Assembly: GCA_051960855.1 (NCBI GenBank)
Contig: JBQCDV010000038.1
Location: 2,625 to 66,624 of the forward strand
Length of the DNA stretch: 64,000 nt
DNA from: Actinomycetales bacterium
GTDB lineage: Bacteria; Actinomycetota; Actinomycetes; JAJZTN01
Direction: 5' to 3'
Part shown: positions 19,078 to 48,959 of the stretch, piece by piece
How positions within the stretch are numbered: position 1 is the stretch's first letter
Layout of the letters: each line of letters opens with the position of its first letter
The notes under the pieces: model-generated
Told to the model about the DNA's origin: nothing
Database searches by the model: none
The model's input: the letters and a program-made list of their open reading frames with translations, nothing else
Translations under genes and position numbers: made by a program

Positions 19078-19103
19078 CGGGCCGCGACGATACCCCGCGA
19101 TAC

Positions 19104-20220
19104 CCTCCGCGGCATGGCTGCCAGACGCCCGATGGACGACGACAGCCCGGCGGCGGGAGGTGACGACACCGTCGTCTGGCCTCCGGTCTCGGTGATCATG
19201 CCGGTGCTCGAGGAGGAGACCCACCTCGCCGAGGCGGTCGCCCGCGTGCTCGCCCAGGACTACCCGGGCGAGCTTGAGGTGGTGCTCGCGGTGGGACCGT
19301 CACGCGATCGCACCGAGGCGATCGCCGCCGAGCTCGCTGCCGCGGACGAGCGGGTCCGCGTCGTGCCCAACCCGACCGGCGCGACACCCTCGGGCCTGAA
19401 CGCCGCCCTGCGCGCCAGCCGCCACAGCATCGTCGTGCGCGTGGACGGGCACGGTCTCCTCTCTGACGGCTACATCCGCTCGGCTGTCCGGCTGCTGGAG
19501 GACACGGGGGCTGCCAATGTCGGAGGGACGATGGCGGCGGAGGGGACCGCGCCGCTCCAGCAAGCCGTGGCCTGTGCGATGCGCAGCCCGCTCGGGGTGG
19601 GCGGCGCCAAGTTTCACGTCGGCGGCGCCGAGGGCCCGGCCGAGAGCGTGTACCTCGGAGTCTTCCGCCGTGAGGTGCTCGAGGAGCTCGGCGGCTTCGA
19701 CGAGCGCTTTCGCCGCGCGCAGGACTGGGAGCTGAACTACCGCATCCGCACCAGCGGGCGCACGATCTGGTACTCCCCGACGCTGTCGGTGACCTACCGT
19801 CCCCGCGCCACCTGGCGGGCCCTCGCTCGGCAGTTCTTCCACACCGGACAGTGGCGGCGCCACGTCGTGCGCACCTATCCCGACACTGCTTCGCCGCGCT
19901 ACCTCGCGGCCCCGGTCGCTGTCGCTGGCATCGCCCTCGGGACCGCGATGGGGGTGACGGCCCAGGTGACAGCAGACCGCCACCCGGGCTGGGCCCGCCT
20001 GCTGCGGCTGGGTTGGGCAGCGCCCGCGGGGTATGGCGCGCTCGTGACCCTCGGAGGCTTTGCGATCACCCGGCAGCAACCGTGGCGCGTCCGCTCGCTG
20101 ATGCCGGCGGTGCTGGCCACCATGCACCTCACGTGGGGCGCGGGCTTCCTGGTGCCCGAACGGCAGAGCCATCCCGAACGGCAGAGCCATCCCGAACGGC
20201 AGAGCGACGGTGACGCATGA
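19104..20220 (+). CDS. Glycosyltransferase family 2
   Basis: 'VSVIMPVLEEETHLAEAVARVLAQDYPGELEVVLAV' GT-A N-terminus with DxD-type motifs. Diverges from the acyltransferase across a 26-bp spacer. C-terminus carries an 18-bp tandem repeat (ERQSHP x3). Confidence 0.8.
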
Positions 20221-23200
20221 GCGCCGACATCACGGTCGTTGTCATCGTCTACAACGACGCTGCTCGACTGCCCGCCGCCGTCGACTCCGTGGTGGCTCAG
20301 CAGCTTCCCACTGGTCGGACCCTCGAGGTCATCGTCGTCGATGACGCCTCGACCGACGGCTCCGGAGACGTCGCCCGCCACCTCGCGCAGACGCGCAGCA
20401 CGCCGAGCTGCGTCGTTCGGGCTCTGACCCTCCCCACCAACAGCGGCGGCTGCAGCCGGCCGCGCAACGTCGGGATCGACGCCGCGCAGGGCCGCTACGT
20501 GATGTTTCTCGACAGTGACGACGTGCTGCCCCCGGGTGCCTGCGCCGCGCTGCTCGCCGCCGCCGAGCGGGAAGCCGCGCCGGTCGCGGCCGGACTGTGC
20601 ATCCGACGGCATCTGGCGACGGGGCGTGACGAGCGCTGGTACCGCTACCTCTACGAGGCCGACGACGTCATCACCGACCTCGCGGACCGGCCCGACCAGC
20701 TCTACGACACGCTGTCGACCAACAAGCTGTACCTGCGTAGCTACCTCGACGAGCACGGGCTGCGCTTCCCGGAGGGCCTGCACTACGAGGACCTGCTCTT
20801 CTCGACCAGCGCCTATGTGACAGCCGCGCGCATCGCCATCACGGCCGCCCCCGTCTACATCTGGCACATCGCCGACGAGAGCGCGCCGGCCTCGATCAGC
20901 CACCGCCGCTTCGACCTGCGCAACTGGGCCGACCGGATGGAGGTGCACCGGCGTTCGGACGCGTACCTGCGGGAGGCGGGCGTCGCGGCGCACCTGCAGG
21001 GGGCCAAGGACCGCAAGTTCCTCAACCACGACCTCAAGCTCTTCCTCGAGGACGTCCTGACCTACCCCCCGGAACAGCGGACCCGGCTGCTCGACCTCGT
21101 CGCCGACTACCTGACAGAGCCGCGACCCGATGGCTTGCCGCCGGTGCTGGCCTCGGCCCCCGACGCGCATCGGCCCTCGCGCCTGGCGGCCTTCGTCGTC
21201 GCGGCCCGCGACCTTCCCCGGGTGCTGCAGGCGGCGAGGTTCTATGTCACCGGCCAGGTCGACTTCCCGGTCGTCGCGGGCGAGGACGACGGGGTGCGGC
21301 ACCTGCGCTGGGAGGCGCGGGAGCTGGCCGGCGCCGACCTCGACCTGTCGGACACCGGCTGGCTGAGCGCTCCGCTCTCCCTCGTCCCGATCGGCGCGGT
21401 CGTCACACACGTTGCGCTCGAGGAGCCCAGCGGCGAGCTGCGCCTCACCGGCCGGCTGTGGGACGTCGGTGGTCGCCTGTGGGGTGGGGACCCCGAGCTG
21501 CTCCTCGTGGTGCGCGGTGCGCTGGGGCGACTGCGGTGGTCTCGCCCGCTGTCCGCCGTCAAGCCGGCCTCACCGGCGGAGCCGTGGGGCTTCGACGTCC
21601 CCGTGGACCTGGCCGCCGTCGCGCAGGCGCTGCGACCGGTCGACCTTGCGCTGGGCTCAGGGCCCGTCCTGCGTATCGAGGCGACGCTGCAGGGCGAGAC
21701 CCGGCGCGTGCGGCTCGCGCTCGACCTCGCCGACCGCGACGTGCTCCCACTCGACCTCGGGACGCTCGGAACCCGCTGGGCCCCGCTGCTGGGACGCAGC
21801 TGGGGACTGACCGAGCAGCGGGGTGTCCTGACCCTGCAGTTCCCATCCGCCGCTGCCGCGGTCACGTCGACGGGTGCGCTCGTCCGGCGTGCCAGAAGCT
21901 CCGGCTACGCCGGGCGCCTGCGCCGTGCCGCCCGTGTCGGCGCGGCCATCGCCCGCCGCCGTCCGCCCGCCGACCTGGTCTTCCGGCTCGCGCAGCGGCT
22001 GCCGGTGCGTCCGGGCACCGCGCTGTTCGAGAGCCACCTGGGGCGGCAGTACAGCGACAGCCCGAAGTACGTCTACGAGGCACTCGTCCGCTCCGGGGCC
22101 CCGTGGCAGGTGACCTGGTCCTACGCCGACACCACCGCCGGCTTCCCCGCGTCGGCGAGGAGAGTGCGGCGCGGCAGCTGGCGCTGGGCGCTGGCGCTGG
22201 CCACCAGCGAGGTGTGGGTCGACAACCAGGGCTGGCCCCGATGGGTGACTAAGCGGCCCGAGCAGCGCTACCTGCAGACCTGGCACGGCACGCCCCTGAA
22301 GACGATGGGCTTCGACGAGCCGACCTTCAAGCGCGGCAGCGGCGCCGACCGAGCGCGGCTGCGCCGGATGGCCGAGCGCTGGGATTGGTTTGTGGCGCCG
22401 TCGCGCTACACCGAGGAGCGGCTCACCTCGGCGTTCGGCTACACGGGGGAGGTCCTCCGCGTCGGCTACCCGCGCAACGACCGGCTCGTCCGCCACACGC
22501 CGGGCGACGTCCGCGCGGTCCGGCACCGCTTAGGGCTGCCGGACGGCAAGCGCGTCGTGCTCTACGCGCCCACGTTCCGTGACGCCGCGCGGAAGGCCGG
22601 GACGCCGTTCTCGCTGCCTCTTGACCCTGCCGAGTTCGCCCGGCGCTTCCCGGACGCGATCCTGCTGGTGCGCACCCACTACCTCGACGAGTGGAGCGCG
22701 CCCGAGGGGCTGCACGACAGCGTCCGCGACGTCAGCGGCCATCACGACGTGACCGACCTGATGCTCGCCGCAGACGTCCTCGTTACTGACTACTCGTCGG
22801 TCATGTTCGACTGGGTGACGACGGGACGACCGGTCGTCTTCTTTCCCTACGACTACGACGACTACGTCCGCGACCAGCGAGGCACCTACTTCGACCTGCT
22901 TGCCGAAGCCCCCGGCCCGGTCGCGATGACGGCACCCGAGCTGCTCGACCTGCTGGCGCTGCCCGACGCCGAGCTACAGACCCGCTTCGCCGCCCGCTAC
23001 CGCGACTTCGTCGACCGGTACACCGACTACGAGACCGGGCATGCCAGCGAGTCCGCGGTCGAGGCCGTCTTCGGCGTGCCCGCGCCGGTGGCGGACGAGC
23101 CCCCCGCCGAACGGCGTCGCGTCGTGATCGTCGCCAACTCCATCGACACCCTCGGCGGTGTGCAGCGCGTCGGGCATGCCCTCGCCGCCGGCTTCGCCGA

Positions 23201-24254
23201 GCGCGGTCACGACGTCGAGCTGGTCGGGATCCGGCACGACGAGCCGCACCACGACTTCGCCGTTCGTGGATATCGCGCGTGGACGCTCTACGACGAGGGC
23301 TTCGAGCCGGGTCGACGCCTCCCCTCCCGCCTCAACCGGTTCGACCTGCCGCGTCGCCGGCAGCGCACGCGGATGCGGCGCGAGGCAGTCCGCCGGCTGT
23401 CCGGGGCCATCACCCGCGAGCCGGGCACGATCGTCATCTGCATGCAGGTGTGGGCGATGCGGTGGCTCAGCGGCTGCGACCTCAGCCGCGTGCGGCTGGT
23501 GGTCCAGTCGCACGAGGACTACTCGGCGTCGAAGGGGCTGACGCCGGCGTCGGAGGGATCGCTGCGCTACGCGCGCATGGACCGCTACTACCGCGGGGCA
23601 GACCGGCTCCTCACGCTCACAGAGGAGGATGCAGCGGCCTTTCGGGCCGACGGGTTCCAGCACGTCGAGGCGATGCCCAACCCGCTGTCGATGGAGGTCG
23701 GGCCGCCTGCCGCGCTCACCGCGCCAGTGGTCCTCACCGTCGGCCGCTACGACGCCCAGAAGAACCAGGCCGCCCTCATCGACGCCTGGGCGCTGCTCGC
23801 GGACCGGCACCCCGGGTGGCGGTTGCGACTCGTCGGTGCCGGCCCGTTGGAGGCCGAACTGCGCGCGCAGGTGACCCGGCTGGGGCTCGACGGCTGCGTC
23901 GAGGTCGCAGGGCCGAGCAACGACGTGCGCGCCGAACTGCAGGCAGCGGCTGTCTTCGCGCTGCCCTCCGACTTCGAGGGCCTGCCCGTCGTCGTTGCCG
24001 AGGCCATGGCCAATGGCCTGCCCGTGGTTGCCTTCGACTGCGGCCCCGGGCTGCGCGAGATGGTGCAGGACGGCGAGACCGGGCTGCTGGTCGACAAGAA
24101 CGACGTTGCCGGGCTGGCCGGCGCGCTCGAACGGCTCATGTCCGACCTCGAACTGCGCCGGCGGCTGGGGGCCGCTGGCCAGGTCGCCGTCCAGCGGTAT
24201 GACCCGGCGGTCGTCTTCGAGCGCTGGGAGCGGCTCTTCGACGAGCTCGGCTAG
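20217..24254 (+). CDS. Trifunctional fusion: GT2 glycosyltransferase, then CDP-glycerol glycerophosphotransferase (TagB/TagF family), then GT4 (group 1) glycosyltransferase
   Basis: N-terminal 'VVVIVYNDAARLP ... VVDDASTDGS ... FLDSDDVLPPG' is GT2. Middle 'LQTWHGTPLKTMG ... VLYAPTFRD ... [11 protein letters not shown] ... VVFFPYDYDDY' is TagF-like. C-terminal 'VVIVANSIDTLGGVQRV ... EGLPVVVAEAMANGLPVVAFD' is GT4. ATG overlaps the upstream GT2 stop (ATGA). Uninterrupted 1345-codon frame. Confidence 0.8.
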   Translation: MSADITVVVIVYNDAARLPAAVDSVVAQQLPTGRTLEVIVVDDASTDGSGDVARHLAQTRSTPSCVVRALTLPTNSGGCSRPRNVGIDAAQGRYVMFLDSDDVLPPGACAALLAAAEREAAPVAAGLCIRRHLATGRDERWYRYLYEADDVITDLADRPDQLYDTLSTNKLYLRSYLDEHGLRFPEGLHYEDLLFSTSAYVTAARIAITAAPVYIWHIADESAPASISHRRFDLRNWADRMEVHRRSDAYLREAGVAAHLQGAKDRKFLNHDLKLFLEDVLTYPPEQRTRLLDLVADYLTEPRPDGLPPVLASAPDAHRPSRLAAFVVAARDLPRVLQAARFYVTGQVDFPVVAGEDDGVRHLRWEARELAGADLDLSDTGWLSAPLSLVPIGAVVTHVALEEPSGELRLTGRLWDVGGRLWGGDPELLLVVRGALGRLRWSRPLSAVKPASPAEPWGFDVPVDLAAVAQALRPVDLALGSGPVLRIEATLQGETRRVRLALDLADRDVLPLDLGTLGTRWAPLLGRSWGLTEQRGVLTLQFPSAAAAVTSTGALVRRARSSGYAGRLRRAARVGAAIARRRPPADLVFRLAQRLPVRPGTALFESHLGRQYSDSPKYVYEALVRSGAPWQVTWSYADTTAGFPASARRVRRGSWRWALALATSEVWVDNQGWPRWVTKRPEQRYLQTWHGTPLKTMGFDEPTFKRGSGADRARLRRMAERWDWFVAPSRYTEERLTSAFGYTGEVLRVGYPRNDRLVRHTPGDVRAVRHRLGLPDGKRVVLYAPTFRDAARKAGTPFSLPLDPAEFARRFPDAILLVRTHYLDEWSAPEGLHDSVRDVSGHHDVTDLMLAADVLVTDYSSVMFDWVTTGRPVVFFPYDYDDYVRDQRGTYFDLLAEAPGPVAMTAPELLDLLALPDAELQTRFAARYRDFVDRYTDYETGHASESAVEAVFGVPAPVADEPPAERRRVVIVANSIDTLGGVQRVGHALAAGFAERGHDVELVGIRHDEPHHDFAVRGYRAWTLYDEGFEPGRRLPSRLNRFDLPRRRQRTRMRREAVRRLSGAITREPGTIVICMQVWAMRWLSGCDLSRVRLVVQSHEDYSASKGLTPASEGSLRYARMDRYYRGADRLLTLTEEDAAAFRADGFQHVEAMPNPLSMEVGPPAALTAPVVLTVGRYDAQKNQAALIDAWALLADRHPGWRLRLVGAGPLEAELRAQVTRLGLDGCVEVAGPSNDVRAELQAAAVFALPSDFEGLPVVVAEAMANGLPVVAFDCGPGLREMVQDGETGLLVDKNDVAGLAGALERLMSDLELRRRLGAAGQVAVQRYDPAVVFERWERLFDELG

Positions 24255-26340: not shown

Positions 26341-26633
26341 CGCTCCGCGAACGCGCCGAGGGACTCGCCCGAGCGCTGGGCAAAGTGCGAGGAGGCCTCG
26401 CGCGGGTCGTTGTCAGGAGCCGGTGAGCTTCGGCCCGAGTCGTCGCCCGGGCCCCCACTGCCGCCGGTCCTGGCCACCGCTGTCGTCACGGGGGCCAAGC
26501 CTAGGCGAGCGGCCCGCCTGTGCCTGCTCACCCCGGCGCCTCGTCGTCCACAGACGGCAATCCGTTGCTCTTTCCTCCACAGCGCACTGGCATCCCACCT
26601 GCTCAGGGGGCCGTCGCGCCTAACTTCGAACCT

Positions 26634-28214: not shown

Positions 28215-28277
28215 GCGGTCCAGGACTGGGCGGCGCAGGACTGAGCGGCGCAGGACTGGGCGGCGCAGGAGCCCGCT
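28188..28277. repeat. 30-bp tandem direct repeat x3 (GTCCAGGACTGGGCGGCGCAGGACTGAGCG; third copy degenerate) spanning the HNH gene stop and the convergent GT2 stop
   Basis: Direct reading. Copy 1 encodes the last 8 codons plus TGA of the HNH gene. Copies 2 and 3 repeat the same codons plus stop downstream. Confidence 0.8.
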
Positions 28278-31874: not shown

Positions 31875-31887
31875 GATGCGGATTCTC

Positions 31888-33708: not shown

Positions 33709-33737
33709 GATGACGACGACGGTCAGCAGGGACTCCG

Positions 33738-35441
33738 GTGTCAGCAGGGCAGTCGGGGCGGTCTCGCAAGGGTTGGCGGGGCTGGCCTGCCATCGTAGGG
33801 GCCGTGAGCGGACCGCCCGACGTCCCTGCCGCTGTCCCGGCTGCTGTCTCTGCCGCTGTCCCAGTCGGCCCCCCAGCTGACGACGTCGTCAGCGTCGTCG
33901 TCAGCGTTGTCGTCATCGTCTACAACGACGCCGCGCGGCTCCCAGCCGCCGTCGCCTCCGCGCTCGCCCAGCAGCTGCCCCGGCCAGCCGCGGAGGCGGA
34001 CCACGCGGCAGCGCGGCCGGTTCTCGAGGTCGTCGTCGTCGACGACGCGTCGACCGACGCCACACCGCAGGTGTGCGCGGAGCTGGCCGCCGACCCGCGC
34101 GTGAGGGTCCTGCGTCGCAGTGCCAACAGCGGCGGCTGCTCGGCCCCCCGCAACGACGGCATGGAAGCCGCGCGCGGTCGCTGGGTGATGTTCCTCGACA
34201 GCGACGATGTCCTGCCGCCGGGCGCTGTCGCAGCACTGGTGGGCGCCGGCGAAGCCAGCCACGCCGACGTCGCCAGCGGTCTGTGCCAGCGCGTGTACCT
34301 CGACAGTGGCGCGGTCCGGCCGTGGTGCCCTGAGCTCTACTCGCGCCCTCGCATCCTTGCCGGCATCGACGACGAGCCCACGCTCTGGCGCGACAGCCTC
34401 AGCACCAACAAGGCCTACCGCCGCACCTTCCTCGAGCATCACCGGCTGCGGTTCCCGCTCGGCATGCACTTCGAGGACCTGGTCTTCTCCGCTCGCGTCT
34501 ACCTCGCCGCCTCGCGAATCGCCCTCGTCCCGGATCCTGTGTACCGCTGGCTGGTTGCGGGGGAGGACGTCCCTGCCGTCAGCATCTCGATGCGCCGGCA
34601 CTCCCTCGACAGCCTGAGGGATCGCGTCCGGGCGCACGAGCTGATCGACGAGGCGCTGGCGACCGCTCGCCCGGCTGACGCCCGGTTGCGGGCGGCCAAG
34701 GACGCGAAGTTCGTCGAGTCCGACCTGCGGCTCTACCTCGACGACCTGTGGCGCCGCGACGATGACTACCGGTCCGGCTTCCTCGAGCTGCTCCAGCCGT
34801 ACCTGCGCAGCGTGCCCGACTCGTCGTGGCGGCTGATGACGCCGCTGCCGCGGGAGGCGGCCGCCGCCGTGCGGGCGGGGGACCTCGACGCCGCACAGGA
34901 CGTCGTCGAGCGCCTCCGTCGCGCTGACCGTCGCTCCCTCACCTGTCTGGCCCGTCTCGACACGATCGACGAACGCCGCCCCGTCGCGTCCGTCGTGCTC
35001 GTCGGTGGCCCTGGTGAGGGCCCGGAGCGCCTGAGTGTCGACCTGGTGCCGGTTGTGGCTGGGCTGGCCGTCCCGCGGCGCGTATGGCTGCGGCGGCCGG
35101 TGACGGCGCGGGCGGCTGACACCGAGCGGCGCCGCTGGGAGCTCGAGCTCGTGCCTCCGCCGGTGCTGCCGTTGCTGCCGGTGTCGTGGCGGCTCGCCGT
35201 CGCCGCACCGCCGCTGGTCGCGCCGCAGACCGTTGCCCCGCCGCGCCTCTGGCGTGAGCCGCCGACGGTGGGTCGCTGGACCTGGGACGTCAGCCGCGGC
35301 GGCGACGTTCAGCTGTCGGACGCGAGGTCGCGACGGTGGGAGCGCCGCGTCGACGCGTGGCGGCGCCGCTGGCGCTGGACGTCGACGGGTCGACTCGTGC
35401 TGGCGGGACGCAGCCGCCTCGGTCGTAGGGTGGCGCCATGA
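33738..35441 (+). CDS. Glycosyltransferase family 2 (paralogue of the GT2 domain of the 1345-aa fusion)
   Basis: '[24 protein letters not shown] ... VVVDDASTDATP ... FLDSDDVLPPGAVAAL' is near-identical at the nucleotide level to the 20217..24254 N-terminus. An alternative GTG start is at 33804. Confidence 0.75.
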   Translation: MSAGQSGRSRKGWRGWPAIVGAVSGPPDVPAAVPAAVSAAVPVGPPADDVVSVVVSVVVIVYNDAARLPAAVASALAQQLPRPAAEADHAAARPVLEVVVVDDASTDATPQVCAELAADPRVRVLRRSANSGGCSAPRNDGMEAARGRWVMFLDSDDVLPPGAVAALVGAGEASHADVASGLCQRVYLDSGAVRPWCPELYSRPRILAGIDDEPTLWRDSLSTNKAYRRTFLEHHRLRFPLGMHFEDLVFSARVYLAASRIALVPDPVYRWLVAGEDVPAVSISMRRHSLDSLRDRVRAHELIDEALATARPADARLRAAKDAKFVESDLRLYLDDLWRRDDDYRSGFLELLQPYLRSVPDSSWRLMTPLPREAAAAVRAGDLDAAQDVVERLRRADRRSLTCLARLDTIDERRPVASVVLVGGPGEGPERLSVDLVPVVAGLAVPRRVWLRRPVTARAADTERRRWELELVPPPVLPLLPVSWRLAVAAPPLVAPQTVAPPRLWREPPTVGRWTWDVSRGGDVQLSDARSRRWERRVDAWRRRWRWTSTGRLVLAGRSRLGRRVAP

Positions 35442-36418
35442 CGTGGTTGATCACTGGCGGAGCAGGCTTCATCGGGGCACATGTCGTCGCGGCGATGCGC
35501 GCGGCTGGAGAGAGCGTCGTGGTGCTCGACGATCTGTCGACGGGCAACCGCGAGAGCGTTCCGGGCGACGTGCCGTTCGTCGAGGCATCGGTGCTGGACC
35601 TCGAGGCCGTGCGCCAGGCGATGCGCGACCACGAGATCGACGGCGTCGTGCACATCGCCGCCAAGAAGCAGGTCGGCGAGTCCGTCGACAAGCCACTGGC
35701 GTACTACTGGGAGAACGTCGAAGGCCTGCGCCGGCTCCTGCAGGCGTGCGTGGACGAGGGCGTGGACCGCTTCCTCTTCTCGTCATCCGCCGCGGTGTAC
35801 GGCAACCCGCCCGTGTCCGTGGTCGAAGAGGACACTCCCTGCGCCCCAGAGAGCCCCTACGGCGAGACGAAGCTGATCGGGGAGTGGCTGCTGCGCGACG
35901 TCGCACGGGCCCACGGGCTGAAGTGGCTGGCACTGCGCTACTTCAACGTGGCGGGCGCCGCGGCTCCGGAGCTGGGAGACCCGGGTGTGTTCAACCTGAT
36001 CCCCATGGTCTTCGAGCGGCTGACCGACGGGAAGGCTCCGCTGATCTTCGGCGACGACTACCCGACGCCGGACGGGACCTGTATCCGCGACTACATCCAC
36101 GTCGCGGACATCGCCTCCGCCCACGTGGCTGCCGCCGCGGCCATTCGAGACGGTCGGGAGACCGCCGGTGTCCTCAACATCGGCCGGGGCGAGGGGGTAT
36201 CCGTCCGTGAGGTCGTCGACCTGGTCCTCGAGGTCACCGGCCGCACCGATGTTGACCCGGAGGTCGTCGGACGCCGGGCGGGTGACCCCGCCGCCTACGC
36301 CGCTTCCGGCCGTGCCATCCGGCAGCGGCTCGGCTGGGCGCCGCAGCACGACCTTCAGGACATGGTGAGCTCGGCGTGGGCGGGATGGGTCAGGCGCCAC
36401 CCCGACGCGCTTCGCTGA
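35438..36418 (+). CDS. galE: UDP-glucose 4-epimerase
   Basis: 'MTWLITGGAGFIGAHVV' and 'YGETKLIGE' are short-chain dehydrogenase/reductase (SDR) epimerase motifs. ATGA overlap with the upstream GT2. Confidence 0.85.
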   Translation: MTWLITGGAGFIGAHVVAAMRAAGESVVVLDDLSTGNRESVPGDVPFVEASVLDLEAVRQAMRDHEIDGVVHIAAKKQVGESVDKPLAYYWENVEGLRRLLQACVDEGVDRFLFSSSAAVYGNPPVSVVEEDTPCAPESPYGETKLIGEWLLRDVARAHGLKWLALRYFNVAGAAAPELGDPGVFNLIPMVFERLTDGKAPLIFGDDYPTPDGTCIRDYIHVADIASAHVAAAAAIRDGRETAGVLNIGRGEGVSVREVVDLVLEVTGRTDVDPEVVGRRAGDPAAYAASGRAIRQRLGWAPQHDLQDMVSSAWAGWVRRHPDALR

Positions 36419-38384
36419 GCTGCTCTCGCGCGGTCAGCTCTCGGACGCGCTGGTAGCGGCGGAGCGCCAGGGGATCGCCGTTCAGCTCTGGGGCGGGGGC
36501 CCAGCCGGGCCGCACGTCGGTCGCCGTCTCGAGGAACTTCTGCTCGTCTGCCTCCCACGTGTGTCCCAGGGAGTGCCGACACAGCACATAGCCCTGGCTC
36601 GTCGTGCGGTAGATCCCACCGCCCGCGTCGCGCACCGCAGTGAGCAGGTGCAGGTCGACGCCGCGTGGCTGAGGAGCCCAGCCGCCCACCGCCGCAAGGT
36701 CCTCTGCACGGATGAGGATGGTTCCGCCTGCCACCCACTCGACGTAGCGCTCCGGGCTCGCCTCGACGCGCCGGTGCAGCGTGCGGTCGGACGTCGCCAG
36801 GTACACCCATTCGACGAGCATCCCGGTCACCGTCGCTCCCGACCACGTCGAGGCTTGCACCAGGTCGGTGAGGTGATGCGGGCCGTACCAGTCGTCATCG
36901 TCGAGTTTCGCGAGGAATGCCCCGGACGCGGCGCGTGTGGCGTGCTGAAGGACGGTTCCCAGAGGGAGGTCCGCCGAGGCGGCAAGCATCTGGACCGCTA
37001 TGCCGCGTTCACGGAGGGGGGCCAGGAGCCGATCGAGCTCGGCGGCAGGCACGTCCAGGTCGTGCAAGGCCAGCACCAGCTCCAGTTCGCCATGGGCGGC
37101 GAAGTCCTGCCGGGCCACCGTGGCGAGGGCCAGGTCGAGGTAGGACAGGCGCCGGGTCGCCAGGAGGACTGAGACCGAGGGGCGGCGCGGGCCGAGGGCC
37201 CGCAGGCCGGCCCCGTCAAGGAGGCGACGCCATGCGCCGACTGTTGCGTGGTCGCGCAGAGCAGCCCTGCGCAGTTGCAAGGAGTGGAGCTCGCGCTCGT
37301 CGGGGCCGCCCTCACAGGCCTCGTGGCCTCTCGCATGCGGGGAGGCGAGCAACTCGGAAAGTTCAGCGCCTACGAGCCGGTTCACGGTCAGCGGCAGCCG
37401 GTCCCCCGAGATGGGTACCTGGGCGGCGGCGAGCTGTGTGATGAGTCGGGCGGCTGTGATTGGCGCGACGTCGCCCAGGGCGCTCACGTCCACAGACCGC
37501 AGCCTCCGGAGGGGATGCAGGTGTCGGAACGACAGGGGCGCTTGTCCTCGGCCGAGGTCGACGACGACCGCGTCGTCGTCGTCGACGACCCGGAGGCGTC
37601 CGTCGGTGACGAAGCGCCCGACACCGTGAATCTGATCCCGCTGAAAACCGTGGGGGTTGCAGGTGATGACGTCGACGGGCGGCACGCACTCGGACACGAG
37701 CAGCCGCGCGGGGCCGCCGTGCTGCTGCTCGTTCGGGTCCAGCTCGCCCACGCCCAGCACCACATCGAAGGGCGAGATGTGCGGGTTGTCGGATCGCCAG
37801 GTGTGGTGGGCGTTTGCCACGGTGCGAGCCGCAGAGTCCCCCGACACCCAGGCGAGGTCTACGCCGTCCTCAACACCGACGCGCATTCCCGCCAGCGGCA
37901 GGCGCCGGCGCCCGAGCTCGCTAGCCGCGAGCAGCGTTGACAGTACTGCGTGAACGCGGACGGCGGCTGGCAGCTGGACACGCAGCTGCACTCCGCGAGC
38001 GGGTGCGGGCAGCTGTTCGAGACTCGCCCGAACCGCTGGGCCCAGCCGGGGATCTGAGAGCGAGATGGCGCCTCCCCGGCCGACCCACGGCTCCTCGGTG
38101 ATGAGTTGTACGACACGACTCCGCCCGAGCGACGGCGCAACAGCAAGCAGCGTGCGAAGCTCGGCGAAGCTCGAACACGCGATGACCACGCGCTCCCAGG
38201 TCCGCGCGTAGTCCTCCAGCGCACCCACCGAAGGTGCGGGCCACTCGAGCCGCTGGCAGTCGGGGGGCAGGTCGGGTGCCCCCTTCTCGACTGCAAGGTC
38301 GCTCGCGCCCGCTAGGAGCAAGCACGTCCCAGCCTCGGCACCTGGTGAGGTCACGGCACACTCCCACGTGTTGCAGCCCGGCAT
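36390..38384 (-). CDS. Large glycosyltransferase: a ~400-aa N-terminal domain of unknown function plus a C-terminal GT2 domain
   Basis: C-terminal 'SVSVLLATRRLSYLDLALATVARQ ... FLAKLDDDDWYGPHHL' is GT-A with DxD. No motif was recognised in the N-terminal region. The 3' end overlaps galE by 29 bp. Confidence 0.6.
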   Translation of the reverse strand: MPGCNTWECAVTSPGAEAGTCLLLAGASDLAVEKGAPDLPPDCQRLEWPAPSVGALEDYARTWERVVIACSSFAELRTLLAVAPSLGRSRVVQLITEEPWVGRGGAISLSDPRLGPAVRASLEQLPAPARGVQLRVQLPAAVRVHAVLSTLLAASELGRRRLPLAGMRVGVEDGVDLAWVSGDSAARTVANAHHTWRSDNPHISPFDVVLGVGELDPNEQQHGGPARLLVSECVPPVDVITCNPHGFQRDQIHGVGRFVTDGRLRVVDDDDAVVVDLGRGQAPLSFRHLHPLRRLRSVDVSALGDVAPITAARLITQLAAAQVPISGDRLPLTVNRLVGAELSELLASPHARGHEACEGGPDERELHSLQLRRAALRDHATVGAWRRLLDGAGLRALGPRRPSVSVLLATRRLSYLDLALATVARQDFAAHGELELVLALHDLDVPAAELDRLLAPLRERGIAVQMLAASADLPLGTVLQHATRAASGAFLAKLDDDDWYGPHHLTDLVQASTWSGATVTGMLVEWVYLATSDRTLHRRVEASPERYVEWVAGGTILIRAEDLAAVGGWAPQPRGVDLHLLTAVRDAGGGIYRTTSQGYVLCRHSLGHTWEADEQKFLETATDVRPGWAPAPELNGDPLALRRYQRVRELTAREQLSEARRGGA

Positions 38385-38558
38385 GATCGGTGGTCGCCGC
38401 AGCGTAGCGAGGCCCTACCCTCGACTGTCGTGCCTCGTCGACGACTGCTCCCCTGGCGTTCCGGTGTCGAGTCCGCAATTGCCGTCGAGCCAACGAGCGC
38501 CTCTCGCCGGATCGATAGCCGCTGCTCGCGGCAGTGGCCCCTTCCCGTCCGCGTTGGC

Positions 38559-39917
38559 ATGGCGACGATCCCAGCGCGTGAGTCGGGGCTTCGGGTCGTC
38601 GTGGAGTCGATGCTCGATCAGGCTGAAGAAGTGTGTGTATACCTCAACGGATATGAGGAGGTCCCTGACTGGCTCGCTGCGGCCCCCCGGGTTGTTGCGC
38701 GACTTGGCGAGGATCTTGGCGACCGAGGCAAGTTCGCGTTTGTTGATGGCTTCGATGGGGTCTACCTGACGGTCGACGACGACATCGCCTACCCGCCCGA
38801 CTATGTCGCGGCCACGGTGTCCGGACTCCAGCGGTACCCCGGCGCCGTGGTGGGCTGGCACGGGAGCCTCCTCGATCCGGACATCACCGACTACTACGAC
38901 CACAGCAAACGCCACGTGTTCAATCACGGCAGGGCGTGCCTGCGCGATGAGGTCGTCCACGTGCTCGGGACGGGTGCACTCGGCTTCGATACTCGTGCGC
39001 TGAGCGTCTCCCTCCGCGACTTCGAGGTCCCTAACACCGCTGACCTCTACTTTGCGCGGCTGTGTCAACGACAGGCCGTGCCCCAAGTGGTTCTCGCTCA
39101 CCCTCCGGGGTGGGCGCCGCCGATCCCTTTTCCCCGTGAGGCCACGATCTGGGGTGCCTCTGTAGACAACAACGCCTCGAGGTTCGACACGCGCACCGCA
39201 GCGGCCGCGCTTCTGCCCGAGCTGGCTGCCATGCGCCTGTCGACCCTGGCTACGGCCGGTCCGCTGGCCGTCTTGCGGGTCCGCGACGCTGAGCGAGCCG
39301 TCGGAGTGGAGGCAGCCCTTCGGACGCTCCTGATGCCCTTCCGGATCGCTGTCGCGACCATTGCTGACGAGGCTGCCCACAGTGCTGGCGCTGCCCCGAT
39401 GACTGCCACCGACTCGGGCGCTGCAGAAAACCGTCCGTCCGGCTGGACGGTCTCAGCGGCCACCGACGGAGGGACGCTCGTGTTGACCGGCGACCACGGA
39501 AGGGTGCGCTTTCCGTGGCCGCTGCTGCTGGGCCCCGACACCGCCGCGGTGGACCCGAGCGGCGTGGTCCTCGCGGCAGAACCAGAGCGGCATGCCTCGC
39601 TTACAAGGCGGCTCGCCGAAGAGGAACTGCACCATGTGACCGTGGTCAACCCCCTATCGCCGCTCGACCGTCATCCCGGGCAACTGCTGCTGTGGGCCAT
39701 CCCTCGACTCGCCGGCGCGCCTGACGATGGCACTTGCTTGGCTGCAGCGGCGTTCGAGCCGGTCGTCGAAGCCGACCTCGTTGCGACGGTGCGCCGGCTT
39801 CTTGACCGCCCCGACGTGGCGGCGGCCATGCTGGACGCACAGCTGGCGGCAACTGGCCGGCGGGCGCGAACAAAATGCGGGTCTGCGCTCTGGAACTGGC
39901 TGCAGGAGCAGGCCTAG
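38559..39917 (+). CDS. Putative GT-A fold glycosyltransferase (DXD)
   Basis: 'MATIPARESGLRVVVESMLDQAEEVCVYLNGY ... YLTVDDDIAYPPDYV' resembles nucleotide-diphospho-sugar transferases. Start set at the internal ATG. Visibly lower GC than the window average. Confidence 0.45.
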   Translation: MATIPARESGLRVVVESMLDQAEEVCVYLNGYEEVPDWLAAAPRVVARLGEDLGDRGKFAFVDGFDGVYLTVDDDIAYPPDYVAATVSGLQRYPGAVVGWHGSLLDPDITDYYDHSKRHVFNHGRACLRDEVVHVLGTGALGFDTRALSVSLRDFEVPNTADLYFARLCQRQAVPQVVLAHPPGWAPPIPFPREATIWGASVDNNASRFDTRTAAAALLPELAAMRLSTLATAGPLAVLRVRDAERAVGVEAALRTLLMPFRIAVATIADEAAHSAGAAPMTATDSGAAENRPSGWTVSAATDGGTLVLTGDHGRVRFPWPLLLGPDTAAVDPSGVVLAAEPERHASLTRRLAEEELHHVTVVNPLSPLDRHPGQLLLWAIPRLAGAPDDGTCLAAAAFEPVVEADLVATVRRLLDRPDVAAAMLDAQLAATGRRARTKCGSALWNWLQEQA

Positions 39918-41068
39918 AGCGACAGCAACGCGAATTCCTGCTCCCACCGATCCGCAACGACCTGAGGGCTGAACCGCTGGACCGACGCGTGCGCTGCCTC
40001 ACCCAGGCGACGGCGCAGCGTCGGGTCGACCATGAGCCGCTCCATCGCAGCGGCTAGCGCGTCGAGGTTGCCTGGCGGAAGCACGAGTCCGTCGGACTCG
40101 TCGGTCACGAGCTCGCGCACTCCTGGTGCCACGTCGAAGGCGATGCACGGAAGGCCGTACTCCATTGCCTCCGTGAGGACGACCGGCATTCCCTCGCTAC
40201 GTGACGACAGCACGTAGATCGAGGCCTCCTGCAGGGCTGCACCGACGTCGGTCGTGGCACCCATGAGCTGGACGCTCCCCTGCAGCTCGAGTTCGTCAAT
40301 CTGCTCCTGGAGTGACGCCCGGAGCGGCCCGTCCCCGTAGATCCGCAGCCGCCATTCCGGGTGGCGAGGGGTCAGGCGAGCCCAGGCGGAGATGAGCATG
40401 TCGAAGCCCTTCTCCGGGGCCAAGCGCCCAAGAGACACGACGGTGGGAGCAGTGAGGTCGCTCGTGCGTTCAGCGAGGACGCCTAGTGGGTTGGGAATGT
40501 AGCCCGCGTTCGTCATCCCGTCGAAGGCCCACAGGTCCGCGTCGCGCTGTGTCAGGAGCAGGAACCGATCCGCTCCCGCAAAGAAGCGCTTCACTCGGGC
40601 GTATCGCCCTGACTGACGTGAGGCCTGATAGGACTCGTGGCTCATTCCGATGACCAACGCTCCGGCAGTGTCTGCCAACCGCACCCACTCCATCGCCCAG
40701 ACTTGGGTAACGATGACAATCGGGTCGTCGGCCTGCCGAATCAGTGCCGTCAACTTCGCGGCGCCGCTGCGCTGGACGGAAACGCGGCGCCGGCGCTCGA
40801 TCTGGCGCCTGACATTGAGATTGTGCAGCAAGTGCGGCGGATGCCAGTAATTTGGCGGGTCCGCCTCATGAAGAATGGTGACAGGGTGTCCGTAGGTCGC
40901 CGGGTCATAGTGAGCATCGCGAGAGTGGACGATGCCGACCAGACGGACACGGTAGCCCCTTCCCGCAAGAAGCTCCGCGAGCGACAGGACGAAGCGGGTC
41001 ATCCCTCCCAGGTCCTCGATGTTGTTGGCCACGATGAAGACGTCGCGGGAACGGATCTGATCGCTCAC
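39914..41068 (-). CDS. Glycosyltransferase family 4 (group 1)
   Basis: 'VFIVANNIEDLGGMTRFVLSLAELLAGRGYRVRLVGI ... EGMPVVLTEAMEYGLPCIAFD'. GTG start overlaps the upstream stop (GTGA). Paralogous to the C-terminal domain of the 1345-aa fusion. Confidence 0.8.
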   Translation of the reverse strand: MSDQIRSRDVFIVANNIEDLGGMTRFVLSLAELLAGRGYRVRLVGIVHSRDAHYDPATYGHPVTILHEADPPNYWHPPHLLHNLNVRRQIERRRRVSVQRSGAAKLTALIRQADDPIVIVTQVWAMEWVRLADTAGALVIGMSHESYQASRQSGRYARVKRFFAGADRFLLLTQRDADLWAFDGMTNAGYIPNPLGVLAERTSDLTAPTVVSLGRLAPEKGFDMLISAWARLTPRHPEWRLRIYGDGPLRASLQEQIDELELQGSVQLMGATTDVGAALQEASIYVLSSRSEGMPVVLTEAMEYGLPCIAFDVAPGVRELVTDESDGLVLPPGNLDALAAAMERLMVDPTLRRRLGEAAHASVQRFSPQVVADRWEQEFALLSL

Positions 41069-43899
41069 TGCGGAAGCTCCACCAGCTCTGGAAACAGATC
41101 GTCGACGACTTGACGGGCCGCGTCGCCGCGGTCGTACTCGCAGTAGGAGGCGAGGAAGCGGTCGTAGCGGGCGGCGAACTGCGGCTGCCACGAGTCGACG
41201 TCCGACAGCCTCTCGACCAACTCATCTGAGGTCTCGACAAGTGGGCCGGGAGCCTCCTGCGAGAGATCGAAGTACGCGCCGCGCTCACTCGACACGTAGC
41301 TGTCATAGTCGTAGGTGTAAAAGATCATCGGCCGGCCGGTGAGAGCGAAGTCGAACATCACCGAGGAGTAGTCGGTGACCAGAAGGTCGGCCGCAAGCAT
41401 CAGTGGCGTGATGTCGGGAAGCTGCGAGACATCCCGAGCCACATGGCGTGCGGACTCCGGCAGTCGCGAGCGGTCGAGGTAGTGCGACCGCACGAGCAGC
41501 AGAGTGCCGGGCAGCTTCTCGGCGAAGGCCTGGAGGTCGATCGGCAGTTCAAACTCTTCGTGGCCGCCGCGGTAGCTCTCGCGAAAGGTGGGCGCATAGA
41601 GCACGATGCGCCGGTCCTCTGGAAGCCCAAGCGCGCGCCGCGCGGCGACTTTGGCCTCGGTGTCGGCGCCAACGAGAGGATCGTTGCGGGGGTAGCCAGT
41701 TCGCAAGAGTTGCCCCGTCACGTGCAATCCCCGGACGAGTGTCCGGACATCGTGCTCGCTCCGCACCAGGAAGTCATCCCACCGCGCCACCATGGCCCGG
41801 TGCGCGGCGCGAGCCACATCGCTCTGGCGCAGGAGACCCGGGCTGTCCTCGCCCATCCGCTTGAGCGCGCTCCCATGCCAGGTCTGGAGGTATCGGACCC
41901 GACCGGGTTTGACCACGTCGCGGGGAAATCCTTGGTTGTCAACCCACACCTCAGCGCGGGCGAGGGCCATCCACCAGGCCCAAGACCCGCGTTTCACGAG
42001 GCTCGCGGAGCGCGGAAATCCACTGCGGTCGCGGGCGTAGGACCACACCAGCTCCCAGCGCTCGGCGTCTGGGCGTCCGTCCAGTCGGCGTCGTAGCTCC
42101 TCGTACACGTATTTTGGAGAGTCGGAGTAAGACCGTCCCATATGGCTCTCAAAGACGACGGTGCGACGACGGCGCGGCAGGTGTGTCAGCACCGTCCGGA
42201 AGACACTCGCCTTCGTGTCCTGGCTTGCTAGGGAGGTGGTGAGCTCCTTCCGAAATGCTCGAAGCCTGTCCCGAAGCACTGAAGCGGCGGAGCCAGCTGC
42301 CACGGTGCGCACCAGCTCATCCGCAGCGCGGGTCGATCGCCGCATCGCGGTCGCCTGCAGCGCGAGGTTGCCGTTGCGGGTCCGGTAGGTCTCAACCGCG
42401 TCGAACAGAGCGGCCGGTTGGCGCCGGGCGAGTGGGACGACAGCGGGCGCCGCGTCGGGAGGGAGCGAGAGCGGAAGGTAGGCCTCGTCCCGGCCGACCT
42501 GGATGCGCAGGTTGACGTCCCAGACCCGGTCGAGCGGAGTGCGGGGCGTGACGAGCTGACCGACGGGCACAGCCGCCCGCCAGCGCACCATCCCGTCCGT
42601 GAATTCCACGTCCGTGGCAGGAACCTCGCCGCCGGCAGTCCCACCGCGCTGCCGGACCCGGACGGTGAACACGGCGTCCCGTGGGATGCGACCAAAGTGG
42701 TTGCGCGTTTCTGCGCTTATGTTGAGTCGTCGAGGGTCGCACGAGAGCTCGCTGATGGTCGATGTCAGCGGCAGCTTCGCGAGAGGTAGGTCCTGCCAAC
42801 CGAGGCTCGTCACATCGAGCCACTCGCGATCTTCGGCGTCCTGCGGGAGACCCCAGAAGATGCGGCCGCCCTCGCGGACGAGGTCGACGTCGAGCTTGCG
42901 GCCCTGCGTGAGGTAGGCGCTCAAGGCCACGAGGCGGCGCGCGTCACGGCGCCGGATCAGGTGGGCGGCGACCGCTAGCAGCCGATCCGCCTTGTCGTAG
43001 GCCTCAGGACCGATGTGCTCGAGATAGGCACCCATGAGTGTCATGAACCGCTCGTGGAACTCCGGCGTCCGCAGCGGCAGGTCGTTCAGGTAGAGCCGCA
43101 GGTCCTGCTTGAGAAACTTGACGTCCTTGTGGTTGCGCAGTTCCTCGCGGCCGTGCTCCGCGAAGAAGGCGTCGATGTCGTGGTGGATCGAGAGGCGGTT
43201 TTCGAGCCCGGTGATGTCGTCGCGGCGGTTGGTGATGGAGAGGCTCGTCGCTTTCTCGGCGACGTTCCAGAAATAGACGACGGGCGGGATCAGGGTGATA
43301 CCGCGTGCAAGACAGTAGGCCTTTGCCGTGAAGAGCAGGTCCTCATACTGGCGCCCATCCGGGAACCGAAGACCCTCACGGTCGAGGAACTCACGACGGT
43401 AGAGCTTGTTGGTCGAGATGGTGTCGTAAAGAAGGTCTGGTTGTTCGTCGACGTCCTGGTAGGTCACCGTCGAGCGGTAGAGCCATTCGTACCAAGGCGT
43501 CACGCGACCGCCCTGATCGAGATGCACACGCACAATGCGGCCCGAGACGATGTCGCTGCCGGTCCGCACCGCCGCCTCGTAGAGATTGCGACAGGCGTGG
43601 TGATCGATCGTGTCGTCGCTGTCCAGGAAGAAAAGGAAGGGGGCCGAGCTCGCGGCGATGCCGGCATTGCGAGGCGTTCCGGGCGCCCCCGAGTTGGTGT
43701 CCAGCCGCACGAAGCTGACCCGGTCGTGATCGCGAGCCAGCTGCGCGGCGACCTCGGGTGTGTTGTCGGTCGAGGCGTCGTCGACGATGACGACCTCGAC
43801 CGCGCGAAGCGACTGCGCCAAGGCAGAGGCCACCGCCTGCGGGAGCCGGTTCGGATCGTTGTGGACGATGACCACTACCGCGACAAGAGCATCGGTCAC
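41065..43899 (-). CDS. Bifunctional GT2 glycosyltransferase plus CDP-glycerol glycerophosphotransferase (TagF family)
   Basis: N-terminal '[24 protein letters not shown] ... [12 protein letters not shown] ... FLDSDDTI' is GT2. C-terminal '[13 protein letters not shown] ... VLYAPTFRE ... [11 protein letters not shown] ... [11 protein letters not shown]' is TagF-like. Start set at the GTG overlapping the scoB stop. The ORF is open to 44127. Lower GC. Confidence 0.75.
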
Positions 43900-44597
43900 G
43901 CGGGCGACCCCGCCGCGTTGCGAACGTCGTTGCTGTCGCCTCCGTCGGCGACCGGGTGCAGGTCGGGGGCCACGATGAGCGACGGCTCGGTCTTGTCCCG
44001 GACCTCCTCGACGGTGACGCCGGGGGCGAGCTCGCGCAGCACGAGCCCCTCCGGGGTGACGTCGATGACCGCGAGGTCCGTGATGATCCGCTGGACTACG
44101 GCCTTGCCGGTGAGCGGCAGGGCGCACTCGTCGACAATCTTGTAGCTGCCGTCTTTGGCCACGTGCTCCATCAGCACGATGACCTTCTTCGCGCCGTGGA
44201 CGAGGTCCATGGCGCCACCCATCCCCTTGACCATCTTGCCGGGGATCATCCAGTTGGCCAGGTCTCCGCTCGCCGACACCTGCATGGCTCCGAGGATGGC
44301 TGCGTCGACGGCGCCGCCCCGGATCATTCCGAAGCTCAGCGAGGAGTCGAAGAAGACCGCTCCCGGCAGCAGGGTGACGGTTTCCTTGCCGGCGTTGATG
44401 AGGTCGGGATCCTCGTCGCCTTCGTAGGGGTAGGGGCCGACGCCGAGGATGCCGTTCTCGCTCTGGAGCACGACGGTCACGCCCTCGGGAAGGTAGTTGG
44501 GCACCAGCGTCGGCAGCCCGATGCCGAGGTTGACGTAGGCGCCGTCCGGCAGCTCGCGGGCCGCGCGCGCGGCCATCTGCTCGCGGGTGAGAGCCAT
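43896..44597 (-). CDS. scoB: 3-oxoacid CoA-transferase subunit B
   Basis: '[30 protein letters not shown] ... ENGILGVGP'. ATG overlaps the scoA stop (TGATG). Confidence 0.85.
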
Positions 44598-45427
44598 CAG
44601 GACCCCATCTCCTCTCCGGTGCCGGCCTCGACCGGCACGGCCGGGACGACTGGCACGGCCGGCACAGCCTGCTCCGACCGGGGCCGCACGGTGCGCTTCT
44701 CGATCCGCTTCTCCACCTCGGGGCCGACGACCACGACGCGCTGGACGAAGATGCCGGGCAGATGGATCTCGTCCGGGTCCAGCTCCCCGGGCTCCACGAG
44801 CTCCTCGACCTCGGCGATGGTCACGCGGCCGGCCATCGCGCACAGCGGGTTGAAGTTACGCGCGGACTTGTTGAAGACGAGATTGCCGTGCCGGTCGCCC
44901 TTCCACGCGTGCACGAGGCCGAAGTCGGTCGTGATGGCCTCCTCGAGCACGTAGGTGCGCCCGCCGAACTCCCGCGTCTCCTTGACAGGGCTGGCGAGGG
45001 CGACAGAGCCGTCCGGGTGGTAGCGCCACGGGAGGCCGCCCTCGGCAACCTGGGTACCCACGCCGGTGGCTGTGTAGAAGGCCGGGACCCCGACTCCGCC
45101 GGCGCGCAGCCGCTCCGCGAGCGTGCCCTGGGGGGTGAGCTCGACCTCCAGCTCGCCGGAGAGGAACTGGCGGGCGAACTCCTTGTTCTCGCCGACGTAC
45201 GACGAGGTCATCCGGGCGATGCGGCGGTCGGCCAGCAGGATCCCGAGCCCCCAGTCGTCCACTCCGCAGTTGTTCGAGACGACCCTGAGGCCCCCGACGC
45301 CCCGGTCGTGCAGCGCCCGGATCAGCTGCATCGGGTTGCCGCACAGCCCGAAGCCCCCGACCGCGAGGGACGACCCCTCCGCGACGTCGGCAACAGCCTC
45401 GGCTGCACTTGCGACGACCTTGTCCAC
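44597..45427 (-). CDS. scoA: 3-oxoacid CoA-transferase subunit A
   Basis: '[32 protein letters not shown]'. GTG start preceded by GGAGGAGG. Confidence 0.85.
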
Positions 45428-45624
45428 GTCTGCCTCCTCCGTTCCTCGGCACTCTAACGGCCCGCCCGCCGCGGCCCGATGTCCCACACTCGGCCTTTGC
45501 TTGCCGCTAGCCTCGCGCGGGCTCCTGATGATCCATTCGGGTGAAATCCCCGTGCCCGCCTCGCGTGGCCGCTTGCCGCGCGACTTCAGGACCACGCCGT
45601 TCCGGTCGAGGGGGAGAGGTGCGC

Positions 45625-48764: not shown

Positions 48765-48815
48765 GCCCGCCACCCTAGATCGGTCTCGCCGGACGTCGAA
48801 CTCGCCGCGACCCTG

Positions 48816-48878
48816 CAGGTTGGCCAGGTGGGCCAGGTAGGCCAGGCTTGCCACGTGGGCCAGGTTGGCCACGTTGTC
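48816..48878. repeat. Seven tandem copies of a degenerate 9-bp unit CAGGTNGGC / CACGTGGGC in a divergent intergenic region
   Basis: Direct reading. Located between the TIGR03089-like gene start (48764) and the manC start (48960). Confidence 0.6.
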
Positions 48879-48959
48879 GGTGCCGGTGCGTAGGCTTCGC
48901 CAGCATCACGTTGCGTCCGAACGGCGCTGCCGGAGGCGGGCGAGCGTCGTCGGCGACCT

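Follow-up and report, generated by a model that had tools for sequence, protein, structure and literature searches.

What accounts for a short, comparatively GC-poor run of glycosyltransferase genes in the wall-glycopolymer locus of a high-GC actinobacterium? The run lies in a 64-kb stretch of a 101-kb contig from a metagenome-assembled genome (MAG) of an Actinomycetales bacterium (locus tags ACTHK1_), which we analysed as a whole and refer to as the window; its overall guanine-plus-cytosine (GC) content is 72.1%. An earlier note, made from the sequence alone, had drawn attention to positions 38430..44127 as a lower-GC block with genes for a GT-A, a GT4 and a GT2-TagF glycosyltransferase, and had proposed that it was either acquired horizontally or a variable cassette. 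In our comparisons with sister MAGs, a 7.2-kb segment, 36705..43876, differs strongly between strains whose flanking DNA is near-identical, and we are highly confident that this segment is an allelic cassette within one species, swapped by homologous recombination. Joined to a second element, that the allele in the window was imported from a relative of lower GC content, the reading becomes one that we favour but hold with appreciable reserve.

A strain-variable cassette between conserved flanks

The sister MAGs were traced through exact-protein look-ups and 90% protein clusters, which held proteins of three of them, namely GCA_051960235.1 (JBQCEM; contigs L082 and L084), GCA_051953285.1 (JBQCIX; contigs L083, L085 and L087) and GCA_051958875.1 (JBQCFQ; contig L086); a further contig, L001, came from Logan. 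Identity profiles were computed in sliding windows against L085, L087, L086 and L083, and a breakpoint was taken as the first dense mismatches in the base-level alignments. On the left, L085 follows the window at ~99% identity over 33628-36700 and then falls to 33-71%; the breakpoint is at 36705, inside the gene for a protein of 654 amino acids (aa), the last ~104 codons of which stay in the conserved flank. At the other end, L087 matches the window at 98-100% identity between 46.7 kb and 43887 and at 64-74% beyond, the same switch is seen in L086, and the breakpoint falls at 43876, the eighth codon of the TagF gene and just past the scoB stop codon. Across 40056-43481, L083 aligns at 69% identity. 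The divergence is thus incongruent, being 1% at the nucleotide level in the flanks and 31% in the cassette.

The genes of the alternative allele stand in the same order as in the window. It encodes a 739-aa homologue of the 654-aa glycosyltransferase, a KfiA-like protein, a GT4 protein and a GT2-TagF protein, with aa identities of 64%, 67%, 70% and 63%, respectively, to their counterparts, and in the flanks the epimerase and ScoB show 99-100% aa identity between the allele types. The window's own allele is held by GCA_051960235.1 (98.9% identity over 42639-49246 and 99.0% over 37805-40782), and the Logan contig is 100% identical to the window. It is the combination of flanks that are ~99-100% identical in the sister MAGs with a colinear middle of 60-72% identity that leads us to the 7.2-kb allelic cassette. 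The comparison of locus content among related strains, which the earlier note had suggested, therefore bears out its variable cassette directly and revises its extent, since the cassette begins 1.7 kb further to the left, at 36705, and ends at 43876; the end at 44127 was that of an over-long open reading frame (ORF), and the cassette stops at the true TagF start. Nor was a further polymer pathway added; a homologous, colinear cassette was replaced, the two alleles being sister lineages.

We propose that at least two colinear alleles circulate in one species and would be exchanged whole by homologous recombination, with one crossover near the 3' end of the 654-aa gene, where it is conserved, and the other in scoB or in the first eight TagF codons. 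The four cassette genes are in frame, in operons with overlapping stop and start codons. We also considered a mobile genomic island and dropped it, as there are no tRNA genes in the 64 kb and no integrase at the cassette, all ORFs of the block encode transferases, and the flanking repeats are only short and at chance level.

Since all the data are metagenome assemblies, and since contigs of one sister MAG break inside the cassette (L087 at 43487 and L083 at 43481), it could be argued that chimeric contigs have joined the flanks and the cassette of different organisms. We regard such an assembly or binning artefact as extremely improbable, because the window-type junctions recur in three assemblies (the window, L001, and L082 with L084), the alternative right junction is present in two assemblies, where L086 is identical to the JBQCIX sequence in L087 for about 140 nucleotides (nt) within the cassette, the alternative left junction lies within the single contig L085, and the junctions are at homologous, in-frame positions. 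The ends of L087 and L083 have no sequence overlap, and the last ~20 nt of L086 differ from L087; such contig breaks are consistent with assembly-graph forks from co-occurring alleles or from a third allele.

The GC dip and the history of the window's allele

When the GC content was computed in sliding frames as long as the block itself (5698 nt), the minimum of the whole window, 0.664, fell at 38558-44255, which nearly coincides with the block that had been marked by eye. In 1-kb steps, GC is 63.5-68.9% from ~38.0 to 44.5 kb and 71-75% on either side, and all 1-kb windows below 66.5% fall at 38-43.4 kb, with the exception of one spot near 25.2 kb. The block has 66.6% GC, compared with 72.7% in the remaining window. 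The dip is significant but had been overstated: rather than the 56-62% estimated for its genes, we find 67.5% for 38559-39917 and 65.8% for 39914-43899, and values of 62% or less occur in 9% of the block's 300-nt windows and in none of its 1-kb windows. The 85-nt sample at 38581-38665, read as about 56%, is indeed at 56.5%. The deficit is small, amounting to some 6 points of total GC and some 10 points of GC3, the GC content at third codon positions.

Genes were called from third-position GC and checked against independent calls on the identical Logan contig, and the background for codon statistics was the 43 other genes of this one 64-kb window, not the whole genome. These 43 genes have a GC3 of 0.891 (standard deviation, sd, 0.038), against 0.759 for the KfiA-like gene, 0.792 for GT4 and 0.811 for GT2-TagF, with z-scores of -3.5, -2.6 and -2.1, respectively. 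Synonymous codons ending in A or T are overrepresented (Mantel-Haenszel odds ratio, stratified by amino acid, 2.23; p=4e-37). Among the codons that had been named as typical of the block, the enrichment per 1000 codons is 7.1-fold for TTT, 8.1-fold for AAA, 3.9-fold for TAT and 3.2-fold for GAT, whereas GTA hardly takes part (1.4-fold). Relative to this background, the composition of the block is atypical in the sense applied to acquired genomic islands. As for the flanks, a return to typical composition is sharp on the right, where GC3 is back to 0.88-0.96 in scoB, but on the left it is gradual, the 654-aa gene being intermediate with a GC3 of 0.82.

Part of this dip comes from the enzymes themselves. 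The block genes are also low in GC content at first (GC1, 0.71-0.75) and second (GC2, 0.46-0.51) codon positions, and so are homologues from unrelated genomes of high GC (TagF/GT4 in the loci L014, L043 and L091; KfiA-like in L088-L090), which have a GC1 of 0.68-0.75 and a GC2 of 0.43-0.48 but a GC3 of 0.89-0.98, equal to that of their own flanks. Because GC1 and GC2 are equally low in homologues of normal GC3, the amino-acid composition of these enzyme families, and not foreign codon usage, accounts for about half of the dip in total GC; it accounts for none of the GC3 dip. One might extend this to the whole dip, as an intrinsic property of the families or as low codon adaptation of weakly expressed cell-wall genes, and other genes of the locus do have a GC3 of 0.81-0.84. 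We find this very improbable in view of the homologues just mentioned, of the fused TagF paralogue in the window, with its GC3 of 0.91, and above all of the alternative allele, which is near background at the same site and in the same operon: its TagF, GT4, KfiA-like and 739-aa genes have a GC3 of 0.865, 0.891, 0.872 and 0.839, where the window has 0.81, 0.79, 0.76 and 0.82. The paired comparison of codons for the same amino acid is also directional, with the window having the A/T-ending codon 230 times and the alternative allele 125 times, about 5.6 sd off equality. By segment the counts are 15/5, 79/47, 46/23, 34/12 and 56/38, four of the five being individually significant, and in the flanks they are 0/3 and 1/1.

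We ruled out that the window's allele is under relaxed selection or turning into pseudogenes, on the strength of relative-rate tests, eight of nine of which gave equal protein change on both allele branches (the ninth had more on the alternative branch), together with intact catalytic histidines and an intact DDD motif. With position, family, expression and decay controlled for in this way, the GC3 deficit belongs to the history of the window's allele, of which it is a synonymous-site signature.

Where, then, did this allele come from? In a neighbour-joining tree, the phylogeny that had been called for to set the low-GC GT2-TagF against the fused copy, the two alleles are sisters with 100% bootstrap support; a metagenomic actinobacterial clade branches next, at 47-48% identity, and the fused paralogue is far off at 41%. 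This paralogue, a GT2-TagF-GT4 protein of 1345 aa (20217..24254, + strand), is related to the split pair as had been stated, at 39% aa identity over 967 aa for GT2-TagF and 44% over 381 aa for GT4. Its recent duplication as the source of the pair is ruled out by this 39-44% identity and by its distant position in the tree. Word-seeded homology searches of 5.8 billion proteins with the TagF, KfiA-like and GT4 proteins as queries found nothing beyond the species' own cluster that was closer than the alternative allele (62-72% identity), and then at most 61%. The top TagF and GT4 matches, at 44-59% identity, were all actinobacterial and had the same GT2-TagF plus GT4 architecture.

Since the GC3 deficit is present here and absent in the alternative allele and in the homologues, import from a lower-GC relative is the most likely explanation, and to this extent the earlier note's lower-GC donor is upheld, as an inference from the near-background GC3 of the alternative allele and the excess of A/T-ending codons. 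The window's allele would have resided recently in a lower-GC related actinobacterium and been imported without mobile-element machinery, a direction of transfer that we infer. Genomic GC and GC3 are usually related (Muto and Osawa), and from this relation we estimate that the donor would be an actinobacterium still high in GC, in the mid-60s %, about 5-6 points lower. A donor from a low-GC phylum, as the earlier wording could be taken to mean, does not fit, all relatives found being actinobacterial. It is true that Firmicutes are the best-known source of TagF and TarF and that the nearest solved structure is a TagF of Staphylococcus epidermidis, yet import of, for example, a Firmicutes tag/tar cassette is scarcely credible, given that the top matches are actinobacterial, that the cassette has 66-67% GC, far above Firmicutes, and that the window's allele is sister to another actinobacterial one.

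Several points weigh against import even from a lower-GC actinobacterium. The GC3 deficit is moderate, about 0.06-0.12, and in the divergent part of the 654-aa gene the shift is not significant (p=0.08). GC1 and GC2 are equal between the two alleles, unlike what some donor models predict. The TagF, KfiA-like and GT4 searches of 5.8 billion proteins returned no donor, and all sampled relatives have high GC3. Moreover, the sequences compared are all fragmented MAG contigs, and the alternative allele was assembled from three of them.

The main rival is an old balanced polymorphism without a foreign donor, in which diversifying or frequency-dependent selection would have kept both alleles in the lineage. 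Having diverged too far for recombination between them, they would undergo less GC-biased gene conversion, the window's allele above all, and AT-biased mutation would lower the GC3 of the latter. It would suit the position of the two alleles as each other's closest relatives, the absence of a donor from the searches, the restriction of the shift to third positions, and the GC3 of the alternative allele, which at 0.84-0.89 is itself slightly under background; across bacteria, the GC content of genes rises with evidence of recombination (PMC4450053). Against it, an ad hoc difference in recombination regime would be needed between two alleles at the same site, and ~31% divergence within 99%-identical flanks is hard to keep in one species without import. 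We consider this explanation unlikely, if a serious one. More speculative still, and in our view doubtful, is the idea that the two cassettes are long-lived glycotypes within a single species of soil actinobacterium under phage or toxin pressure, that the GC3 deficit marks a recombination-cold allele which has escaped GC-biased gene conversion and is not of foreign origin, and that the cassette, with GT2-TagF and its rare KfiA-like transferase, makes an undescribed type of teichoic acid.

A scan of genome contigs with ScoB found Microbacterium, Nocardioides and Kribbella all at 84-85% identity and no close genome, ScoB being too conserved and patchy for this use. Near scoAB, a TagF/GT4 pair was present only in L014 and L043; it has the opposite orientation there, with 42% identity to both copies in the window, and these two loci served solely as composition controls.

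The cassette genes and the surrounding locus

At the right end of the cassette, and overlapping the scoB stop with its own start (GTGA), lies the gene for a predicted bifunctional protein of 944 aa (41065..43899, - strand; GC3 0.81) with a GT2 domain and a TagF-type polyol-phosphate transferase domain. Pfam confirms the GT4 and split GT2-TagF gene content that had been read from the sequence; the TagF domain matches PF04464 with E=1.5e-90 and 304 bits, the cut-off being 22, and aligns with residues 351-715 of S. epidermidis TagF (E=7e-70). QTWHGSA stands opposite QTWHGTP (H444) and VRSHYL opposite LRMHYL (H584), so that both histidines are kept, which we take to be the catalytic residues of this enzyme (3L7I structure). 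The NCBIfam equivalog scores are far under their cut-offs (232 against 550 for TarF and 100 against 1000 for TarL, and likewise for TarB), and judged by its sequence the protein is a member of the family that is not equivalent to TarF, TarL or TarB. The adjoining GT4 gene (384 aa; 39914..41068, - strand; GC 65.1%, GC3 0.79), assigned by Pfam, overlaps the TagF stop with its start (GTGA), and its product has 70-72% aa identity to that of the alternative allele.

The KfiA-like protein of 452 aa is encoded at 38559..39917 (+ strand), with an alternative start at 38610 that would give 435 aa, and has the lowest GC3 of the window, 0.76. It has no match in Pfam or NCBIfam. Its first ~220 aa make up a GT-A domain of the type of the KfiA and heparosan synthase 2 (PmHS2) N-acetylglucosamine (GlcNAc) transferases, and the GT-A label of the earlier note is borne out through solved structures: a profile of the protein's nine homologues matched heparosan synthase 2 (E=1e-44) and KfiA (E=7e-26) in the PDB, and Foldseek with an AlphaFold model (predicted local distance difference test score, pLDDT, 75-91 for residues 11-190) retrieved the same structures with E=3e-16, a root-mean-square deviation of 2.4-2.7 Å over 197 columns and 27-32% identity. 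DDD at residues 73-75 is invariant in the alignment of homologues. The C-terminal half (~230 aa) is variable and modelled with low confidence. By homology the enzyme is probably a retaining alpha-N-acetylhexosamine transferase; the KfiA-type GT-A GlcNAc-transferases presumably belong to CAZy family GT45, although a literature search on KfiA/GT45 returned nothing. The family appears to be very rare, with nine hits in the word-seeded search of 5.8 billion proteins, and its members (P0148-P0155) have the ~220-aa domain in common while their extensions are unrelated or variable, some having an N-terminal extension of ~100 aa.

Transcribed divergently from this gene, and separated from it by an intergenic stretch at 38355..38558 that lies inside the cassette (allele identity 0.38-0.48; GC 0.69) and presumably holds the promoters of both genes, is the gene for the 654-aa putative glycosyltransferase (36390..38354, - strand). 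Named 'glycosyltransferase' by NCBI, the protein has a weak, sub-threshold Pfam match to GT2 at residues 475-540, no match in a PDB sequence search and none in NCBIfam. It is a mosaic, its C-terminal ~104 aa lying in the conserved flank and its N-terminal ~550 aa in the cassette, where the 64% identity to the 739-aa counterpart is found.

The conserved left flank comprises a GT2 gene (33738..35441, + strand) and a galE-like epimerase gene (35438..36418, + strand), both ~99% identical in L085. On the right are scoB (43896..44597, - strand; GC3 0.93; product 100% aa identical in sister MAGs) and scoA (44597..45427, - strand), encoding subunits B and A of a 3-oxoacid coenzyme A (CoA)-transferase. 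With scoA first, the run of scoA, scoB, GT2-TagF and GT4 (41065-45427, - strand) is linked through stop codons that overlap the following start codons (TGATG, GTGA and GTGA), the scoB-TagF junction being identical in the alternative allele; such translational coupling of a CoA-transferase to teichoic-acid genes is unexpected. The C-terminal tail of ScoB, ~20 aa, is unmatched in most relatives. Further to the right, a SpoIID-domain protein with three CWB2 repeats is encoded at 45541-47976 (+ strand), and patches of 82-89% identity near 45147-45250 and 46047-46190, between strains otherwise 99-100% identical, may reflect short recombination tracts or variable segments exposed at the surface.

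The surroundings, 15-44 kb, are a wall-glycopolymer locus with genes for LCP ligases, an acyltransferase, a TagGH-like ABC transporter, cytidine diphosphate (CDP)-alcohol transferases, an NTP-transferase, an Fe-ADH_2 protein, GT2 proteins and GalE. The transferases are inside the cassette and the ABC transporter, LCP ligases and CDP-alcohol genes are outside it. We thus envision 36705-43876 as the core that varies from strain to strain in a wall-teichoic-acid-like glycopolymer locus, where GT2-TagF would transfer a sugar as well as a polyol phosphate taken from a CDP-alcohol, while the CDP-alcohol pathway, the TagGH-like exporter, the LCP ligases and the second, fused TagF enzyme would be shared machinery. 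A swap of the cassette would then yield a different polymer repeat or decoration, and hence a different receptor type for phages or toxins.

Other features of the locus are worth recording. A gene for a DUF222 protein (PF02720, E=3e-10; 26520-28214, + strand; GC3 0.82) separates the TagGH-like ABC transporter genes from those of the GT2/CDP-alcohol group. Proteins with DUF222 commonly belong to HNH-type mobile genes, and this one may mark another rearrangement point. Next to it, at 28276-31278 (- strand), is a second, milder GC3 dip (0.81-0.84) that covers genes for a GT2 protein, a CDP-alcohol phosphatidyltransferase-like protein and an Fe-ADH_2 protein resembling glycerol-1-phosphate dehydrogenase. 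A set of Fe-ADH_2, NTP-transferase, CDP-OH_P_transf and ABC-2 transporter genes is present at 28276-33708 in the window, 4185-9146 in L088 and 4785-10937 in L089, the latter two being short contigs that bear a KfiA-like homologue; DUF5941 is also found in the window and in L089, and the third KfiA-like locus, L090, has in common only the NTP-transferase and LCP genes. The recurring set looks like a conserved actinobacterial glycopolymer pathway, possibly one using a CDP-activated polyol made via the glycerol-1-phosphate-dehydrogenase-like enzyme. Finally, upstream of the fused TagF gene, at 19300-20220, an ORF at 19300..20190 (- strand; GC1 0.88, GC3 0.74) competes with one at 18532..20220 (+ strand; GC3 0.80), and neither resembles a typical gene of this genome.

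Relation to known surface-polymer systems

The findings document, at base level, the switching of a teichoic-acid-type cassette within a species of uncultured high-GC actinobacterium, in a group whose wall-polymer genetics is known mainly from comparisons between species. They also provide a worked control for compositional arguments: total GC overstates the anomaly, because these enzyme families are low in GC1 and GC2 everywhere, and an allele at the same site serves as an internal control for GC3. In addition, they flag a rare family of KfiA-like transferases that travels with a set of uncharacterised CDP-alcohol and Fe-ADH_2 genes.

The serotype-like variable cassette itself is a familiar pattern and not a new kind of system. 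The remark in the earlier note that surface-polysaccharide loci commonly acquire serotype-like variable regions agrees with what two sister MAGs contain, namely flanks of 98-100% identity and a cassette of 60-72%, and the arrangement is that of a variable cassette, with a divergent centre between near-identical flanks, transferases inside, and precursor, export and ligation genes outside. O-antigen (rfb) and capsule (cps) loci have serotype-determining regions, such as that of pneumococcal cps between dexB and aliA. As in those, the locus here has conserved housekeeping flanks (scoB and galE/GT2) and a lower-GC central region of glycosyltransferase genes, and the whole cassette would be replaced via the flanks without mobile-element genes. 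It differs from them in that there are no Wzx/Wzy genes in the cassette, export being by an ABC transporter encoded outside, in that the GC deficit is small, and in that one breakpoint lies within coding sequence and gives rise to a mosaic glycosyltransferase.

Closer in terms of the polymer are two Firmicutes cases: in Bacillus subtilis, wall teichoic acid (WTA) cassettes are swapped through homologous recombination (PMC8753576), and Staphylococcus aureus ST395 has alternative tag/tar genes (PMC3993852, PMC3903184). Here too a block of TagF-type and glycosyltransferase genes differs strongly between near-identical strains, with recombination in conserved flanks, and a change in the polymer and in the receptor for phages and gene transfer would be expected. 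Unlike in those systems, the host is an uncultured high-GC actinobacterium, and the alleles consist not of different gene sets but of colinear homologues (63-70% aa identity); the enzymes also have GT2-TagF, GT4 and KfiA-like architectures that the Firmicutes cassettes lack. In Streptomyces, variable teichuronic acid (TUA) and teichoic acid clusters set the lectin specificity of umbrella toxins (bioRxiv 10.1101/2025.04.24.650519; PMC13274773). The likeness is that of an actinobacterial wall glycopolymer that combines transferases varying between close relatives with conserved genes for precursors and export, with an arms race at the surface as the proposed driver, but those comparisons are between species and concern TUA clusters (utr genes), whereas here the variation is within a species, between 99% flanks and of TagF type.

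Lastly, the N-terminal ~220 aa of the KfiA-like protein resemble, by profile and by fold, Escherichia coli K5 KfiA and Pasteurella multocida heparosan synthase 2 (PDB 5z8b, 8vh7, 8viw). In contrast to these enzymes, the protein here belongs to a Gram-positive locus of teichoic-acid type and has an unrelated, variable C-terminal half of ~230 aa but no partner glucuronyltransferase domain.

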